Part shown: one piece after another, positions 5,174 to 13,024 of the stretch
Layout: each line of letters opens with the position of its first letter
Position numbering within the stretch: position 1 is the first letter of the stretch
IMG/VR virus record: IMGVR_UViG_3300030434_000006
Span: 64,955-89,444 of that record
DNA from: a virus
Lineage: Duplodnaviria > Heunggongvirae > Uroviricota > Caudoviricetes
Reading direction: 5' to 3' (one strand)
Length of the DNA stretch: 24,490 nucleotides
The notes under the pieces: model-generated
What the model was told of the DNA's origin: nothing
Database searches by the model: none
Seen by the model: the letters and a program-made list of their open reading frames with translations, nothing else
Program-made: the position numbers and the translations under genes

Positions 5174-6082
5174 ATGAAATCACCCTTCTTTAAAAACGTC
5201 ATGGCCTACAGCCTGAACCGAGATATTCCGCTCGATGCGGATCAGCTGGAGCAGCAGCTGCATGCGATGACGTTTTCCCCCTGTGCTGCGCAGGACATGG
5301 CTAAATCAGGCTGGATCAATGTCACGTCAGACGGCCCTCTGCTGGCCGAGAACGGTCAGTACCTGCTGTGCTGCCAGCATGAAACCAAGATTATGCCAGT
5401 GGCAACGCTCAACGATTACGTTGCCGAAAAAGTGGAGAAAATAGAGCGTGAGCAGGCGCGCAAGGTGCGCCGCAGTGAAAGAGTCAGCCTGAGAGACGAG
5501 GCGCTGTGTGTGCTTCTGCCGCGTGCTTTCTCACGTCGCTCTGAGTCCTACATCTGGATTGATAGCGTGAACAGCCGTATCTACGTTGACGCGGCCAGCG
5601 CGAAAGCCGCTGAAGACATGCTGGCGCTGCTGCGCAAAACTATCGGCTCCCTGCCGGTTATTCCAATGATGACCGCTGATCCCATTGAACTGACGCTAAC
5701 TGAATGGCTGCGCGCCGCAGAACTGCCTGCCGGTTTTGCGCTGGGCGACGAGGCTGAGCTGGCGGCAATACTGGAGGACGGCGGCAAGATCCGCTGCAAA
5801 AAACAGGACTTACTGAGCGACGAGGTGCGTACGCACATCGAGGCCGGGAAACTGATCACGCAGCTTAGCCTGGACTGGCAGGAGCGCATTTTCTGCCGCG
5901 TATCAGATGACCTGAGCATTAAGGGCATTAAGTACGCTGACATGCTCACCCAGCAGAATGATGATATCGACCGCGAGGATCAGCGCGCACGCATGCTGGC
6001 TGATTTCATGCTCTTTGCGTCTGAGTTTTCCAGCTTCTTCTCCGGGCTGGTGGAAGCACTGGGCGGCGAGGCGAAGCGATGA
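5174..6082 (+). CDS. rdgC: Recombination-associated protein RdgC (P1 HrdC-like)
   Basis: [11 protein letters not shown]-terminus, [28 protein letters not shown] and the DFMLFASEF...LVEALGGE C-terminus are RdgC hallmarks. ATG at 5174 preferred over TTG at 5159. Confidence 0.93.
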
Positions 6083-7350
6083 TCTATCCGGCTGTTTCAC
6101 TTCACAACGCAAAGTGCCTCGATATCCTGCGCACCCTGCCTGATAACTCTGTAGACAGTATTGTTACCGATCCGCCTTATGGCATGAACAGCAAAGAGCC
6201 TGACATGGCTGAGGTGCTGGGCCACTGGTTAGCCGGTGATGATTATCAGCATTCTGGCGGCGGCTTCATGGGTAAGTCATGGGACGGTTTTGTGCCAGGT
6301 CCGTCCGTGTGGAAAGAGTGCCTGCGCGTGCTCAAACCAGGCGGACACCTGCTGGCCTTTTTCAGCCCCCGTACACAGGATTTAGGCACGCTGGCCATAC
6401 GTCTCGCCGGTTTTGAAATCCGCGACTCCATTGCCTGGATGTACGGCAGCGGCTTCCCGAAAAATATGGATATTGGCAAAGCCATTTACCGGCAGGTTAC
6501 TGACTACAGCCACTATGCGATTAAGCGCTGGAAAGGCTGGGGAACGGCCCTAAAGCCAGCCCATGAGCCAATTTCCGTTGCGCGCAAACCCTTCCGTGGA
6601 TCGCTGATAGCGAACCTGCTGGAAAACGGCACTGGTGCAGTCAACGTAGAGGTATGCCGGGTTCCTTTTTCCGGTGCTGCTGATGAGAGCGAGTCGAAGA
6701 CCAAAAACCAGCATGCGGATCGCGGTAATGGGGCGTGTTCTGGCAACGTCTATCACGATTTATCAGGACACTCGCGCGATAACTACAATCCACCAGGCCG
6801 GTGGCCAGCGAATCTGATCCATGATGGCAGCGATCCGATTCTGGCGCTATTTCCAGAGTCCAGCCAGACAGGCAAGCGAAGCGCCAACAGTAAAGCGGCG
6901 AGTGTTGACGGCACCAGCTGGGGAACGGACAACCATCAGAGTACCGAATACACCGACAGCGGCAGTACGGCGCGCTTTTTCTACTGCGCTAAAGCGAGCT
7001 CTAAAGAGCGCCATGAAGGCGTTAAGCACCCCGGCCCGCAATTCAGCCACGACAGTACACCCCGCCAGCACGAAAACGGCGGAGACCGTATGCAGGGCAA
7101 CTATCACCCGACAGTAAAACCCGTCGCGCTGATGGAGTATCTGTGTCGCTTAGTTACGCCTGCTGGTGGCGTGATACTCGATCCATTCATGGGTAGCGGC
7201 ACGACTGGCAAAGCCGCTGTGCGTAATGGGTTCCGCTTTGTCGGCATTGAAATGGATGATGGCTACTTTGACATAGCCGTGAGCCGTATCAGCTTTGAGA
7301 AGCCACCAGCAGCGCCTGTGCATGATGCCACTGAAGAGGTGATCGCATGA
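6079..7350 (+). CDS. Orphan beta-class N6A/N4C DNA methyltransferase
   Basis: Catalytic VTDPPY near the N-terminus, HPTVKP, and SAM-binding [11 protein letters not shown] near the C-terminus (beta order). No cognate nuclease nearby. Confidence 0.92.
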
Positions 7351-9896
7351 TCACCTACGGCTCTGTTTGTTCGGGCATTGAAGCCGCCAGCGTGGCGTGG
7401 GACGGGCTGGGATGGAAAGCGGCATGGTTCGCGGAGATTGAAAAGTTTCCCGCGGCCGTGCTGGCGCACCACTATCCCCACGTCCCTAACCTGGGCGACA
7501 TGACCAAAATAGCCGCTGGCGTACGCGCTGGCTCTATTCCTGCTCCAGCTGTGATGGTTGGCGGCACCCCGTGCCAGGCGTTCTCTATCGCCGGACTCCG
7601 TAAAAGCCTCGACGACCCACGCGGTCAACTCACCCTTGCCTATGTAGATTTAGCGAATGCCATTGACGAAAAAAGAGCTTCAAACGGCGAACCACCAGCC
7701 GTCCACCTGTGGGAAAACGTGCCGGGAAGCCTCAGCACCGATGACAACGCCTTTGGATACTTCCTTGCCGGAATGGCTGGAGAAGATGAAGCGTTTGAAC
7801 CAGGCCCACGACCTGAACCAGGCAAAAACGGCCCCGGCTGGCGATGGAAAAAAAGCGACGGTAAGCATGTGGCGAAGTGGCCAAAGTCTGGTTGTGTTAT
7901 TGGACGACAGCGCAAACTCGCCTGGCGACTGCTCGATGCCCAATACTTCGGAGTGGCCCAACGCCGCCGCCGTGTGTTCGTTGTCTCAAGTGCTCGAAAC
8001 GACGTCGATCCCGCAGAAATACTTCTTGAGTTCGACGGCATGCGCCGGGATTCTCCGCCGCGCAGAGAAACGGGGCAGGCAGTTGCCCCCCTTACTGCTA
8101 ACGGCTCTGGAGTCGGTGGCCCTGACTTCTCACATGCCGCAGCCGGTCACTTAATTTCTGCGTTTGACGCGCATGCAAAATCAGACAGCGGGCAAATTGT
8201 CGGAGCTATTGCGGCACATTCATTTACTGGTGGCGCTGGCGGCAGGCCTGAAGGCGCAGCAGCTGGTCACTTTATTCCCGTAGCGTTTGGCGGCGGGAAT
8301 TGCTCCGGGGCGTTGGATGTAGCCGCGTGCCTGACGGCAAAAGGCCAGCGCAATGATTTTGACGTCGAGACATTTGCTGTGCAAAGCGCCACGGGCGAGG
8401 TTAGCCACACATTGACCGCCGAAGGACACGACGCCTCCGAGGATGGCACCGGGCGTGGTACGCCGACCGTTGCTTACGGCTTCCAGACTCGCATAGCGCG
8501 TAACGGCCGCGGCGACATGGCTGATGTTTGCCACACACTTAGCGCTGAATCCGGGGAAACGGGCAAAGGTGACGCAGCGCCATGCGTTGCCCGATGTGTT
8601 GAGCATGCCGCTTTTGCCGAAAATACCCGTGGCGAAGTCCGGTTGTTCAACGGTGACGGCCAGATCACCGGCGCGCTATCAGCTGGTGGCGGTAAACCAG
8701 GCCAGGGCTTCCCGTCTGTAGTCAGTCACTGTGAAGTCCGGCGTCTGACGCCAAAAGAGTGTGAGCGTCTGCAGGGCTTCCCCGATGGCTGGACACTCAT
8801 TCCGGAAAAGAAGCGCAATACACTTGCCGCAGATGAACTGGCATACCTTCGCCTGATGTACCCCGACATGCCAGAAGATGAAGCGCACCGACTGGCGGCT
8901 GATGGTCCGCGTTATAAAGCGATCGGCAACTCTATGCCAGTGCCGGTTATGCGCTGGATTGGCAACCGCATAGCTAATCAAATCATGGTTGTGCCTGGCG
9001 AAATTGAGACGCAGCCAGCAACCCTCCCCGCTCCACCAGCGGCAAAGAAAAAGCGTGCGCCGGCGCGAAAGGTTTTGGACGACAAATACCCCCGTTCATT
9101 CCTAAAGTGGGCTGGCGGTAAATACTCGGTTCTGGATGAAGTGCTGCCAATGCTGCCCGCAGGAAAGCGCCTGATAGAGCCATTCGTCGGTAGTGGTACG
9201 GTGTTCATCAACGCGGGCTTTAAGCGCAACCTGCTGGGTGATGTTAATCCGGATCTGATTAACCTCTTCAACCAGCTGCAGGGCAATCCTGATGCCGTAA
9301 TTAAGGCGGCTTACCAGCTGGAGAAAGGCTGTCTGTCTAATGAGGCTTATCTCGCTATTCGTGATGAGTTCAACGGGCGCGAGGCTCACGCTGTACGCCA
9401 CGCAGCGCTTTTCCTGGCGCTGATGCGAACCAGCTTTAACGGGCTATGCCGGTATAACCAGAAAGGCCTGTTTAATGTGGGCTGGAATAAGAAGGGTGAG
9501 GCGAATTACTTCCCGATGGATGAACTGACGCACTTCACCGGCATGCAGAAAGAAATGACGTTCATGTGTGCCGGGTTTGAGGATGTGATCGCGCAGGCGG
9601 GTCAAGGAGACGTGATTTTCTGTGACCCCCCGTATGAGCCTCTGCCGGACGAAGCCGGGTTTACAGCATACAGTGGCACCTCATTCACCTTTGCGGATCA
9701 GGTGCGGCTGGTGGAGTGTCTGGTGGCGGCGCGGAACCGTGGCGCAAAGGTGGTAATCACAAACAGCAGCGCTCCTGCCATTCTGTACCTGTATATCAGC
9801 AATGGCTTCAGAATCACCCCGCTGGCCACACGCCGATCCGTATCCTGCAAAAGTGAAACGCGCAAAACGGTCAACGACATAATTGCCGCTCTCTGA
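7347..9896 (+). CDS. dmt: Bifunctional DNA methyltransferase: C5-cytosine domain fused to a Dam-like adenine domain (P1 Dmt-like)
   Basis: C5 motifs SVCSGI (I), GGTPCQAFS (IV), ENVPG (VI), QRRRRVF (VIII), [14 protein letters not shown] (IX) and YKAIGNS (X). A Pro/Ala/Lys linker is followed by Dam motifs [15 protein letters not shown] and DPPY. Confidence 0.93.
7657..8154 (+). CDS. Nested +1-frame polypeptide resembling the beta subunit of EcoHK31I/EaeI-type two-chain C5 methyltransferases
   Basis: 165-codon ORF entirely inside dmt. Contains [47 protein letters not shown] (7948-8088), which matches my recollection of the beta-chain motif. Start uncertain (7657, or a downstream ATG such as 7741). 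Confidence 0.7.
   Translation: MPLTKKELQTANHQPSTCGKTCREASAPMTTPLDTSLPEWLEKMKRLNQAHDLNQAKTAPAGDGKKATVSMWRSGQSLVVLLDDSANSPGDCSMPNTSEWPNAAAVCSLSQVLETTSIPQKYFLSSTACAGILRRAEKRGRQLPPLLLTALESVALTSHMPQPVT
8136..8276 (+). repeat. Imperfect direct repeat in the C5-MTase variable region (AAAGH module, 120-bp period)
   Basis: GCCGCAGCCGGTCACTTAATT (8136-8156) versus GCAGCAGCTGGTCACTTTATT (8256-8276). Confidence 0.6.
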
Positions 9897-9904
9897 AACG
9901 AACG

Positions 9905-9930
9905 AAACCCGCTTTATGCGGGTTTTTTTT
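9905..9930 (+). terminator. Rho-independent terminator after dmt
   Basis: AAACCCGC-TTTAT-GCGGGTTT running into an 8-T tract, 9 nt after the dmt stop. Confidence 0.9.
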
Positions 9931-10073
9931 CTTTACTGGACTATCAGCAATGTACGTATTTTTAATGCCAACTTTTAATAGAGCACCACTGATGACCAAT
10001 GGAACGGTCAGCTACTGTTTACAGTCAGTAATCAGCGAGTATTATTGATGATGTAATGTACAGGGAGATAAAA

Positions 10074-10886
10074 ATGGACGCAGCCTTGCTTGAAATGATG
10101 GGCTCAGGTGGAAGGAATAAAGCCTGGGCTGAAACAATGGTCAATCTTGAAGCCAGAAAGCTGATTAATATAGCTAACAGGCTGTCAGCCTTACATCTTA
10201 ACGATGGGCTAACCCGGATGCAGTTTGTCCAGGAGATAAAATCGGTTGTTGATAAGCAGTTTGCTGCAGCCCGACAGGCAAAGTCTGATGAAGAATGCCT
10301 GGAGTGCGTTAAACAGCTTAGATCTGAAACAGAAAACCTTGAAGAGCAAGGACGATTACTGCGTACAAAGACAGCAGAGCTCTATGCCAAAGTGGAATTT
10401 GTACGCGAAAACAACGAAATTGTGGGTTTCATGATTTCTGCTGTTCATGTCGTGATTTCAGGCTTTGCTGTAGTTGGCGGTGCTTTAATGATATCGACAA
10501 TGACGCCTCTCGGCGCACTGGCCGGTGCCGTTCTCGTTATGGACGGACTTAATGGGATCTCTAAAGAACTTATTCCCCGCCTGTCTGGCGAGAAAACAGA
10601 AGGCATGTTTGCCGATGGTGCAATGCACGCTGCGCAGTTTATGGGATTTAAAGCAGAGTCAGGGCTTGCTTTCTACAATACGGTAACGCTTTCTGCGAGT
10701 GTTTACAGCATTTGGGGCCTGGCGAGAAAGCCTGGTGCATGGCGTCTGTTCAGATGGATGCCTCGTGATTACTTCCGTAAAGTAGATACTATGAGCCGCC
10801 CGAAGCTGACCATGAAAATAGTTGGCTGGGGTGTAAAAGCTAAGGTGATATTCGATTTACTAAGCGTAAACGAGCAATCACGCTGA
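10074..10886 (+). CDS. DUF4225-like protein; helical N-terminus and hydrophobic Gly/Ala-rich hairpin (putative membrane-active toxin/effector)
   Basis: SD AGGGAG precedes the ATG at 10074. Hydrophobic stretch IVGFMISAVHVVISGFAVVGGALMISTMTPLGALAGAVLVMDG. Family assignment from recalled sequence features; lower GC than the flanks. Confidence 0.7.
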   Translation: MDAALLEMMGSGGRNKAWAETMVNLEARKLINIANRLSALHLNDGLTRMQFVQEIKSVVDKQFAAARQAKSDEECLECVKQLRSETENLEEQGRLLRTKTAELYAKVEFVRENNEIVGFMISAVHVVISGFAVVGGALMISTMTPLGALAGAVLVMDGLNGISKELIPRLSGEKTEGMFADGAMHAAQFMGFKAESGLAFYNTVTLSASVYSIWGLARKPGAWRLFRWMPRDYFRKVDTMSRPKLTMKIVGWGVKAKVIFDLLSVNEQSR

Positions 10887-11198
10887 GTCTCTTTTCAACC
10901 GCCAGTAACGCCATGACTTCCAAGCCAGCACTGGTGGTTGAATAAACGTCACTATGACTATCCCGAAGAGCAGAGACAGGCCTCCGCCAAAAATATATGT
11001 CTTAGTCGAGAAACAGAGAAGAAATACAAATACGAGCGAGCAGGCTGAGACGATCCATAACAACACTCTAAACCTGTTCTTTAAATCCACTACTGCTTCA
11101 TCCAGCGTTCCGCCATAGCTTTCAATGTTGTTTTTGATTTTTTTCAAATCAGCATCAGTAAAGCCCGACTTCAACAACTCTGATTCATTAACTATCAT
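10878..11198 (-). CDS. Small two-TM inner-membrane protein (putative immunity/partner)
   Basis: 106 aa with two hydrophobic segments (LLWIVSACSLVFVFLLCF; IFGGGLSLLFGIVIVTFI) and a basic C-tail. SD AAGGTG. The 3' end overlaps the DUF4225-like gene by 9 nt. Confidence 0.8.
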   Translation of the reverse strand: MIVNESELLKSGFTDADLKKIKNNIESYGGTLDEAVVDLKNRFRVLLWIVSACSLVFVFLLCFSTKTYIFGGGLSLLFGIVIVTFIQPPVLAWKSWRYWRLKRDSA

Positions 11199-11243
11199 GG
11201 TGCATCACCTTTCGTCCTTAAAACGTGGAGTCATTCTACCGCA

Positions 11244-11274
11244 ATTATATACGTGCATGACTCTCATACATCAA
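11244..11274 (-). promoter_or_regulatory. Candidate constitutive sigma70 promoter of the two-TM gene
   Basis: On the minus strand, TTGATG (11269-11274) is 17 bp from TATATA or 19 bp from a perfect TATAAT (11244-11249). Flanked by the inverted repeat GAGTCAT/ATGACTC. Confidence 0.55.
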
Positions 11275-11335
11275 CTTCCTTTGGCACTATAAAGGACTTC
11301 CGGACCATGTAAATGTGTTAAGGAACCGCCAAATC

Positions 11336-11743
11336 TTAGGTTAGCTTCATCCCGGTATCCCAGAAGGCTGGTAGTGATTCTGCCGGAATGCCTCGTGGTG
11401 TTTTTAGCAACTGCAGCGCCTGCTCCATCGTGATGTGCTCACAGGCATACTCACGGAAAAGATAGCCAATAAGCCCTGCCGCCTTTGCTTCTCTGGCTCT
11501 TACGTTGTAAGCAGCCTGACATTCAGCACTCACACGGCTGGTTTCTTTGAAATAGTATTCTCGCGCTCTCGCATAATCGTCTGTGCAGGCCACCAGCACG
11601 TTTTCTGTGATCACTTCATAGCGACCCTGGCAATCTTCACCGCAGTCCAGCAGCCGCACGCCGGTTCTTTCTGACGATGCCAGCACGGTTTTCTGAATAG
11701 GCAGGCCAGTGTCAGGGATCATTCGTCCGTAAACGTCATTCAT
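11336..11743 (-). CDS. Hypothetical protein (135 aa)
   Basis: SD AAGGAA upstream; fills an otherwise empty gap; no recognisable motif. Confidence 0.65.
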   Translation of the reverse strand: MNDVYGRMIPDTGLPIQKTVLASSERTGVRLLDCGEDCQGRYEVITENVLVACTDDYARAREYYFKETSRVSAECQAAYNVRAREAKAAGLIGYLFREYACEHITMEQALQLLKTPRGIPAESLPAFWDTGMKLT

Positions 11744-11936: not shown

Positions 11937-12515
11937 ATGAGTAACCGTAAAGCCTCGCACTTTGAGCTTTTCCATAACCTGAATATGGCAATGCGCGAAG
12001 ATCCGCAGTTTTCCTATGAATATGACTATTCACGAGAAACGCGGACACTGATGGAAACGCCCTACTGGCGTCTCACCTCGTCACAGCGCACCACGCGCAA
12101 CACGATGATTGAGCAGACGATAGCAAACGCCACGGCGGAAGATACCCGCGTGCGCATGATGGCCATGCGTCCGGAGCATCGCTATCTGCTGATCCCAAAT
12201 TACATCTGCCTAGCGACAACTGAGTTCTACATGGAAGTTCAAGGCTCACTGTCTGATGAGCCGAAGACCGCCGATCTGATGCCGGTCATGTGGTCCGCGA
12301 TCTACGCGCTCAACCTGGGGCGCGGTATGTCTACTGACGTCTGGAGCGAAATGTCACCTGCAGACCAGCTGGCGCAGACCAAATGGGTTCAGAAGGTACT
12401 GAGTACCGTCAAGCTGTCGCGCTACATCACCGATGCAAGCCGCGCTGTCTGGCTGGGCCTGTTCGTGACCTTCAGCGATATCCCGGATGATTTCTACGAG
12501 CTGATGGAGTCGTAA
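11937..12515 (+). CDS. Hypothetical protein (192 aa, mostly helical)
   Basis: Codon usage similar to the phage genes; stop overlaps the next ATG (TAATG); no recognisable motif. Confidence 0.75.
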   Translation: MSNRKASHFELFHNLNMAMREDPQFSYEYDYSRETRTLMETPYWRLTSSQRTTRNTMIEQTIANATAEDTRVRMMAMRPEHRYLLIPNYICLATTEFYMEVQGSLSDEPKTADLMPVMWSAIYALNLGRGMSTDVWSEMSPADQLAQTKWVQKVLSTVKLSRYITDASRAVWLGLFVTFSDIPDDFYELMES

Positions 12516-12739: not shown

Positions 12740-13024
12740 ATGCCTGCTGCCGGTACGCTGGACTCCGTTTGTTCCGGACACGGTGCCTTCCCTTCACGTC
12801 AGACCGCTGAGGCTGACGCGGGGCTAACCATCAACGGCAAGGCCGTGCTGGTGGACGGCAAACTGTTTAAGGATCACACGGACGGGAAAAGCACTCACAA
12901 CGGCAAGGCGGTCTCTGGCCGTCCGTGGTTCACCATTAACGGCAAAGGCATTGTGTGCGTTGACGATCAGGTTTCATGCGGATCGACAGTCGCAACAGGC
13001 GATGCCGGATTCCAGGTGAACTGA
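12740..13024 (+). CDS. PAAR-family spike-tip protein (T4 gp5.4-like)
   Basis: 94 aa. PAAGTLDSVCSGH, INGKAV and INGKGIV repeats, Zn-ligand His/Cys residues (H14, H46, H53, C80), ending V-x-x-G-x-x-x-F-x-V-N. Confidence 0.9.
   Translation: MPAAGTLDSVCSGHGAFPSRQTAEADAGLTINGKAVLVDGKLFKDHTDGKSTHNGKAVSGRPWFTINGKGIVCVDDQVSCGSTVATGDAGFQVN

Follow-up and report, generated by a model that had tools for sequence, protein, structure and literature searches.

A putative orphan DUF4225-family effector/immunity cassette of type VI secretion at a cargo hotspot of a Pantoea P1-like phage-plasmid

The DNA analyzed here, called the window throughout, comprises the final 24.5 kb (24,490 nucleotides, nt) of an 89.4-kb virus record (IMG/VR, IMGVR_UViG_3300030434_000006) and has its genes in the order of a P1-like phage-plasmid (mat, genes for the tail and baseplate, rdgC, dmt, a UpfC-like PAAR gene, and the capsid gene). 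The nearest named relatives of the element were Pantoea plasmids of roughly 90 kb, such as pEuc3. Between dmt and the backbone gene orf135 lies an island with two convergent genes, one encoding a DUF4225 protein and the other a small membrane protein, which we read as a probable effector/immunity cassette of a type VI secretion system (T6SS). The features of the island are as follows (aa, amino acids).

9931 to 11366, no strand assigned: inserted cargo of low GC (guanine plus cytosine) content, approximately 1.4 kb, at the dmt-orf135 hotspot (blastn break points and GC content)
10018 to 10045, plus strand: candidate sigma-70 promoter of the toxin gene, TTTACA-16-TATTAT (10/12 consensus match; conserved)
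10074 to 10886, plus strand: putative DUF4225 effector (toxin) gene, 270 aa (PF13988 match, conserved start)
10878 to 11198, minus strand: putative cognate immunity gene, 106 aa (convergent partner, hydropathy, co-variation)
11244 to 11249, minus strand: candidate -10 box TATAAT of the immunity gene (conserved in loci L018, L019, and L021, with TTGATG/TTGCCG upstream)
11286 to 11313, minus strand: second promoter-like site, TTTACA-16-TATAGT, in phage-plasmid copies only (10/12 consensus match)

A first-pass annotation of the sequence had described an AT-richer island right after the dmt terminator, and the composition agreed with this description: GC content was 0.40-0.47 over 9850-11350 (300-nt windows) versus 0.53-0.62 inside dmt, and climbed again past approximately 11350. 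When the window was compared by blastn with relatives that have an empty site or other cargo (L007 and L008), backbone homology broke at 9926-9930 and restarted at 11367-11379. The limits originally proposed (9935-11335) were essentially right because the backbone breaks lie close to them. It also follows from these break points that the insertion rewrote the final nine codons of orf135. A natural empty site, with the terminator alone between dmt and orf135, was found in L008 (pPSP-26e) and L039. The DUF4225 cassette itself was present at this same position in 8 of 12 informative IMG/VR contigs, in three PLSDB plasmids, and in one isolate contig (L020). Three non-phage Pantoea loci (L018, L019, and L021) encode toxins 89-91% identical to that of the window, and only the segment 9975-11298 was common to these loci and the element; this segment, both upstream regions included, is the mobile unit.

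Four other elements carried different cargo at the same site. In L051 (3741-5141, minus strand), the cargo was a KAP-family P-loop nucleoside triphosphatase (NTPase) that matched PDC-S20, a candidate system of PADLOC (E = 1e-70), and in L007 (3867-5234, minus strand) it included an annotated P-loop NTPase. The cargo of L041 (3994-5367, minus strand) was an XRE/MqsA-like helix-turn-helix (HTH) gene followed by genes for proteins of 135 aa and 199 aa without known function, the latter with a hydrophobic segment, and that of L050 (4535-5362, plus strand) was an uncharacterized 275-aa protein with a weak PDC-S31 match. Because the site is empty or holds other cargo in related phage-plasmids, it is a moron hotspot. 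A search of a phage collection returned no nucleotide match to the cassette, and the sole protein match was weak and lay in a mislabelled Salmonella contig.

The toxin gene starts at ATG 10074 (MDAALL...), which is preceded by GGGAG and was kept in all homologues of the family alignment. The open reading frame (ORF) from an in-frame upstream ATG (10056) would give 276 aa; this codon is probably not the start used. A hidden Markov model search bore out the suggestion that the large protein is DUF4225-like: the match to PF13988 (Pfam DUF4225) was full-length (E = 8.3e-33; 113.6 bits versus a gathering threshold of 25.9), covering profile positions 2-165 of 165 and residues 87-247 of the 276-aa reading, and a search of the genome gave the same result. 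A phmmer search over 1.8 billion representatives returned 192 relatives of the toxin. Full-length relatives (approximately 255-290 aa) aligned from about residue 10 to the C-terminus, those of roughly 265 aa over their entire length, and therefore DUF4225 and the helical part at the N-terminus are inherited as one piece. Positions with little or no variation were mostly glycines in and after the hydrophobic hairpin (G136, G151, and G158), together with a WRLFRY-type motif, and the family alignment contained no obvious conserved catalytic set.

Hydropathy placed a single long, hydrophobic, glycine-rich hairpin at residues 114-156 of the toxin and two transmembrane (TM) segments in its small partner, as had been read from the letters. 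No N-terminal signal peptide was found in the toxin. The protein was predicted to be all-helical, with a mean predicted local distance difference test (pLDDT) score in AlphaFold2 of 69 for the full-length model and 79.6 for the domain only; the N-terminal three-helix bundle (residues 14-97) was modelled confidently (pLDDT > 90). Foldseek returned no match to the toxin models in the PDB at E ≤ 0.001. In a wide VIA-align search, residues 14-97 matched generic three-helix bundles (Z ≤ 9.5) and the DUF4225 domain model matched small membrane helical subunits (Z ≤ 6.7), both under the noise level quoted for helical proteins. The best result of a sequence-profile search of the PDB was Pyocin-S2, on the N-terminal helices (E = 0.18), and nothing scored lower. 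Approximately 86-100 residues precede DUF4225 in the toxin, compared with the 140-residue PIX delivery domain of Pantoea effectors.

DUF4225 is a published T6SS effector domain with a TM immunity partner, and the system is therefore not undescribed, as had been supposed in the first-pass annotation. In Vibrio parahaemolyticus CFSAN018764, the gene after hcp1b encodes a DUF4225 protein that acts as an antibacterial effector dependent on T6SS1 (Jana et al. 2022, mSystems; PMC9765294). When produced in Escherichia coli, it was toxic only if directed to the periplasm, where it caused lysis, and was harmless in the cytoplasm; it was neutralized by an adjacent 89-aa protein with three TM helices (PMC9765294). 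The domain is widespread in polymorphic toxins (PMC9765294). In Pantoea agglomerans pv. betae, four DUF4225 proteins (Pse9a-d) are among the T6SS1 effectors, and two of these (Pse9a and Pse9b) came from proteomics of the T6SS secretome (preprint 10.64898/2026.08.01.741415). According to the same preprint, nearly all effectors have a small neighbouring immunity gene, most are orphan, one is on plasmid pPAB03, and effectors of the Pse9 type occur in at least 90% of complete P. agglomerans genomes, all 40 of the genomes analyzed having T6SS1. The pPAB03 pair (WP_064703456.1 and WP_031593845.1) was 72% (toxin) and 51% (partner) identical to the window pair over the full length, with the convergent partner kept; its toxin gene was the sole DUF4225 gene detected on that plasmid. 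What had been put forward as the best candidate for a new system in the window is instead a published toxin family with a predictable partner.

The two genes are tail-to-tail and overlap by 9 nt, both ORFs being present as first described. The small protein consists of a soluble N-terminal part of 40 residues, two TM segments (approximately 44-64 and 69-91), and a C-terminus that is basic and includes the conserved motif KSWRY, as judged by hydropathy. Basic residues precede TM1 and follow TM2, which suggests that both ends of the protein are cytoplasmic. No family in Pfam, NCBIfam, PADLOC, or PHROGs matched it, and a protein atlas held unnamed clusters only. Its homologues formed approximately 50 clusters at 90% identity from Pantoea, Erwinia, Yersinia, Lelliottia, Enterobacter, and Klebsiella aerogenes, and hypothetical was the annotation in every case.

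A homologue of the small gene was found on the opposite strand directly after the toxin gene in all 21 genome loci, which represent distinct species, as well as in 8/8 complete viral loci and in the four plasmid loci examined (4/4). Together these loci span at least eight genera, Pantoea, Enterobacter, Erwinia, Tatumella, Ewingella, and Mixta among them. Pairwise identities of the two proteins were strongly correlated (Mantel r = 0.95; none of 2000 permutations reached this value). The co-occurrence and co-variation anticipated for the pair were observed, and no complete related locus lacked the partner. Divergence was faster in the small protein (mean identity 0.54) than in the toxin (0.73). 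Both genes showed purifying selection among close copies, with ratios of nonsynonymous to synonymous substitution rates (dN/dS) of 0.18 for the toxin gene and 0.14 for the small gene, and the toxin gene was intact in all phage-plasmid copies examined. The proposal of a self-contained, horizontally acquired toxin/immunity cassette was upheld.

Conservation was unevenly distributed within the pair. The least conserved parts of the small protein were its two TM helices (0.57-0.59 versus 0.76-0.79 in the soluble parts), and those of the toxin were residues 128-141 and 157-180 (0.65 versus 0.83-0.93 in residues 101-127 and 142-156).

The small gene was intact at five loci where the toxin gene was frameshifted, truncated, or internally deleted (L021, L034, L036, L037, and L038), and its retention after toxin decay is the usual fate of effector/immunity pairs. 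Beyond the intact pair of Tatumella terrea (L023, 7298-7745), a remnant of a toxin C-terminus (residues 225-269) was found with a second, diverged immunity gene; this second set is an older cassette that has been displaced, a pattern known from arrays of polymorphic toxins. By hydropathy, pairing, and pattern of retention, the small gene behaves as would be expected of the inner-membrane immunity gene of the toxin. The same retention raises the alternative that the benefit lies in immunity only, that is, that the pair is kept mainly so that the host survives DUF4225 attacks by neighbouring Pantoea and the toxin gene is an undelivered passenger. The immunity gene outlived the toxin in 5/21 genome loci, and the frequency of Pse9-type effectors in P. 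agglomerans (at least 90% of genomes; preprint 10.64898/2026.08.01.741415) makes such attack pressure plausible. We nevertheless consider this alternative unlikely: in every phage-plasmid copy examined the toxin gene has stayed intact, it is under purifying selection (dN/dS of 0.18), and it has a conserved candidate promoter and ribosome-binding site.

The conserved upstream signals of the toxin gene were GTTTACA and TATTAT/TATCAT blocks, shared by the phage, Pantoea, Erwinia, and pPAB03 copies, and the GGGAG ribosome-binding site with the start codon, whose conservation likewise extends from the phage copies as far as Erwinia and pPAB03. The plus-strand promoter proposed earlier (TGGACT-18-TTTAAT, 9937-9966) is present, but it lies outside the unit common to the non-phage copies, and 10018-10045 is the better candidate. 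On the minus strand, the TATAAT previously assigned to the small gene (11244-11249) is present and was conserved in the closest chromosomal copies. The second minus-strand site (11286-11313) falls outside the segment common to the chromosomal copies. It is conservation that singles out the candidate promoters, because promoter-like matches in the cassette region were at chance level (3 found versus 2.7 expected). No terminator was found between the two convergent genes, and transcription of either would therefore continue into the other in antisense. The 5′ leader of the immunity gene (11199-11225, minus strand) contained a near-invariant TTTTAAGGATGAAAGG block, kept even in pPAB03 despite its differing upstream region. 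This block exceeds what a ribosome-binding site needs and may be a regulatory element.

The upstream neighbour of the effector gene is dmt with its terminator, and no hcp gene is found there, so the cassette does not have the composition of an Hcp auxiliary module. Among the 122 flanking proteins of 14 non-phage loci, neither a T6SS family nor a recurrent defence family was found among the 25 most recurrent Pfam families; the recurrent families were transporters, regulators, and metabolic enzymes. Because no such family recurs in its neighbourhoods, the subclade to which the cassette belongs is orphan. The host genome of the sibling element L020, whose toxin is 88% identical to that of the window, contained three TssC loci, and its sole DUF4225 gene was on the phage-plasmid contig. 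In this host, the element supplies an effector type otherwise missing from the genome.

An anti-phage role had also been considered for the cassette. Under this explanation, it would be an abortive-infection or superinfection-exclusion module, in which a membrane toxin restrained by the small protein is freed on infection by a competing phage and kills from inside. Hydrophobic hairpin toxins are found among abortive-infection effectors, and the cassette occupies a cargo hotspot of a temperate phage-plasmid where sister elements carry the PDC-S20 KAP NTPase (E = 1e-70) and the HTH-led three-gene set. However, neither protein had a credible match in PADLOC: in PADLOC-DB 2.0, the only match of the toxin was a weak HTH model on the helical N-terminus (E = 7e-4), and the small protein had none. 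The genes around homologous cassettes have housekeeping roles, without a defence family that recurs, and repeated decay of the toxin with the small gene kept fits protection from an incoming toxin, not a self-killing switch. In addition, the Vibrio effector did no harm in the cytoplasm, and its toxicity required a periplasmic location (PMC9765294). We therefore regard an anti-phage module as very unlikely, and of the roles suggested at first, abortive infection found no support, whereas competition or element maintenance stayed plausible.

Maintenance might also operate within single cells, the pair serving as a toxin-antitoxin system for plasmid addiction (post-segregational killing) that stabilizes the phage-plasmid without secretion. 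A toxin gene paired with an antidote gene on a plasmid prophage of low copy number would suit such a system, and the homologous pair of pPAB03 adjoins a RelE/Phd pair. Against this, most homologues were found on chromosomes or on stable replicons of large size, the antidote, an integral membrane protein, shows no sign of being labile, antidote-only loci were common, and the homologous toxin was not toxic in the cytoplasm (PMC9765294). Intracellular addiction was accordingly the least probable of the alternatives considered and is very unlikely.

The reading that best accounts for these observations, to which we assign a probability of roughly 0.78, is that the island is an orphan DUF4225-family cassette for a T6SS effector and its immunity protein (Pantoea Pse9/Psi9 type), gained as a moron by a Pantoea P1-like phage-plasmid at the dmt-orf135 hotspot. 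A lysogen would make the 270-aa protein, predicted to lack a signal peptide and to combine an N-terminal three-helix bundle with a DUF4225 domain bearing a glycine-rich hydrophobic helical hairpin, and this protein would be loaded as cargo onto the host's own T6SS. Fired into neighbouring cells, it would attack the envelope or inner membrane from the periplasm and lead to lysis, an outcome seen only for the Vibrio homologue. The hairpin may insert into the target inner membrane from the periplasm, in a colicin-like manner without a detectable relationship. The convergent 106-aa inner-membrane protein would protect the producer and its kin, probably by recognizing the toxin within or at the membrane, because the TM helices of the immunity protein and residues 128-141 and 157-180 of the toxin are the most variable parts of the pair. 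The pair would thereby let lysogens kill non-lysogens and punish loss of the element, a form of addiction at the population level.

Several points weigh against this reading. The function of the window toxin (secretion, toxicity, and protection) would be that of homologues sharing its domain, from which it is carried over by analogy, and the literature gives no biochemical activity for DUF4225. In the 14 non-phage loci of the toxin subclade, no hcp, vgrG, or PAAR adaptor gene was recurrently adjacent. The T6SS loci were read in the host of the sibling L020, and the record containing the window (G000) is viral sequence alone. From the text of the preprint, we infer that the DUF4225 gene of pPAB03 is one of Pse9a-d. 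The co-variation of the toxin and the small protein is supportive but not proof, because shared descent partly inflates the correlation. Finally, the candidate defence genes at the same hotspot in other elements leave some room for a defence role.

If the T6SS reading is true, a phage-plasmid hands its host a new T6SS effector, the sole DUF4225 effector in at least one host genome (that of L020). A broader proposal is that the dmt-orf135 site is a swappable armoury slot, occupied in some elements by a T6SS weapon and its antidote and in others by candidate anti-phage genes, and that the DUF4225 pair makes lysogeny a social trait: lysogens would kill non-lysogens and segregants, and the element would be spread and kept by kin killing, not by intracellular addiction. 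This proposal is tentative, and we place it at somewhat less than even odds. The locus would nonetheless provide a natural T6SS effector/immunity pair on an extrachromosomal phage-plasmid, the insertion of which is exactly defined by sisters with an empty site or other cargo. The small partner family (approximately 50 clusters, without a model in Pfam or NCBIfam) could receive an annotation as immunity family of this DUF4225 subclade, and the pattern of variability, concentrated in the immunity TM helices and in the hairpin and post-hairpin parts of the toxin, is a testable hint of recognition in or at the membrane.

The cassette is flanked by two backbone features.

9904 to 9926, plus strand: intrinsic terminator hairpin of dmt, bidirectional; final backbone element 5′ of the insert (terminator scan)
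11336 to 11743, minus strand: backbone gene orf135, right flank of the hotspot; final nine codons insert-derived (tblastn)

Homologous terminator hairpins were also found 3′ of dmt in the cassette-less relatives L008 and L007. In tblastn searches with the orf135 product, residues 1-126 aligned in cassette-less relatives and residues 1-135 in cassette carriers; in the cassette-less relatives, the product stops after residue 126 with a different tail (window 11336-11366). Neither orf135 nor the following gene (11937-12515, 192 aa) had a family match. A PAAR-domain gene 1.8 kb downstream of the cassette (12740-13024) was tried as a T6SS adaptor and ruled out: it is a homologue of P1 UpfC (64% identity) and was also found in cassette-less relatives. 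It is a backbone gene and not cargo; because all relatives have it regardless of the cargo they carry, it probably encodes the tail-spike tip and is probably not linked to the T6SS cassette.

Other variation was observed on the dmt side of the backbone. The fused C5/N6 methyltransferase Dmt (7347-9896) ranged from 808 to 880 aa among sister elements, owing to insertions and deletions in the central portion of the C5 part (L012-L014, L041, and L050), and some relatives had an additional ORF of 270-420 aa between rdgC and dmt (window 6079-7350). The consensus of the P1-type C1 operator had no match at ≤ 3 mismatches across the 89-kb genome. A look-alike of this operator at 9970-9986 occurred only once in the window, and the operator reading was dropped.

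Among known systems, the cassette was compared by description with the Vibrio pair DUF4225(18764)/Imm4225(18764). The toxins share PF13988, a similar size, a non-catalytic N-terminal part followed by DUF4225, and the lack of a signal peptide, and in both systems a small multi-TM protein is encoded directly after the toxin. Unlike the Vibrio pair, which is part of an Hcp auxiliary module, the window cassette has no hcp nearby. The Vibrio immunity protein has 89 aa and three predicted TM helices, whereas that of the window has 106 aa, a soluble N-terminal domain of 40 aa, and two TM helices, and is encoded convergently with a 9-nt overlap.

The comparison with pore-forming colicins (A, E1, and Ia) made in the first-pass annotation holds only as an analogy. 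As in colicins, a helical toxin acting from outside the cytoplasm would carry a hydrophobic helical hairpin, a small polytopic inner-membrane immunity protein is encoded on the opposite strand, and variability is concentrated in membrane segments. The window toxin differs in having no receptor-binding or translocation domains, being too short for extra domains, and no lysis gene; its delivery is presumably by T6SS, whereas colicins enter via outer-membrane receptors. Searches by sequence and fold did not link it to the pore-forming colicins: no colicin family matched in Pfam at E ≤ 1, and no colicin was listed by Foldseek or VIA-align.

Temperate phages carrying polymorphic toxins or T6SS effectors are on record, according to the citation of Jamet et al. 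(2017) in PMC13366799. The phage-borne examples (Jamet et al. 2017; the PAAR2/TseV cluster of Burkholderia phage AB4) resemble the window cassette in being temperate-phage morons that would arm or protect the lysogen. The cassette differs from these examples in its toxin family, in its extrachromosomal phage-plasmid vehicle, and in having no spike or tube gene. No T6SS effector on a phage-plasmid turned up in the literature searched. The Pantoea Pse9/Psi9 pairs (strain 4188, and the pair of pPAB03) share with the window the convergent overlapping layout, the host genus, and an orphan site away from T6SS clusters. Those copies are in variable regions of a chromosome, a megaplasmid, or a 179-kb plasmid, whereas a P1-like phage-plasmid carries the window copy as cargo. 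Published work already covers the family, its pairing, and its orphan and mobile habit, and the phage-plasmid vehicle is a modest extension of them.

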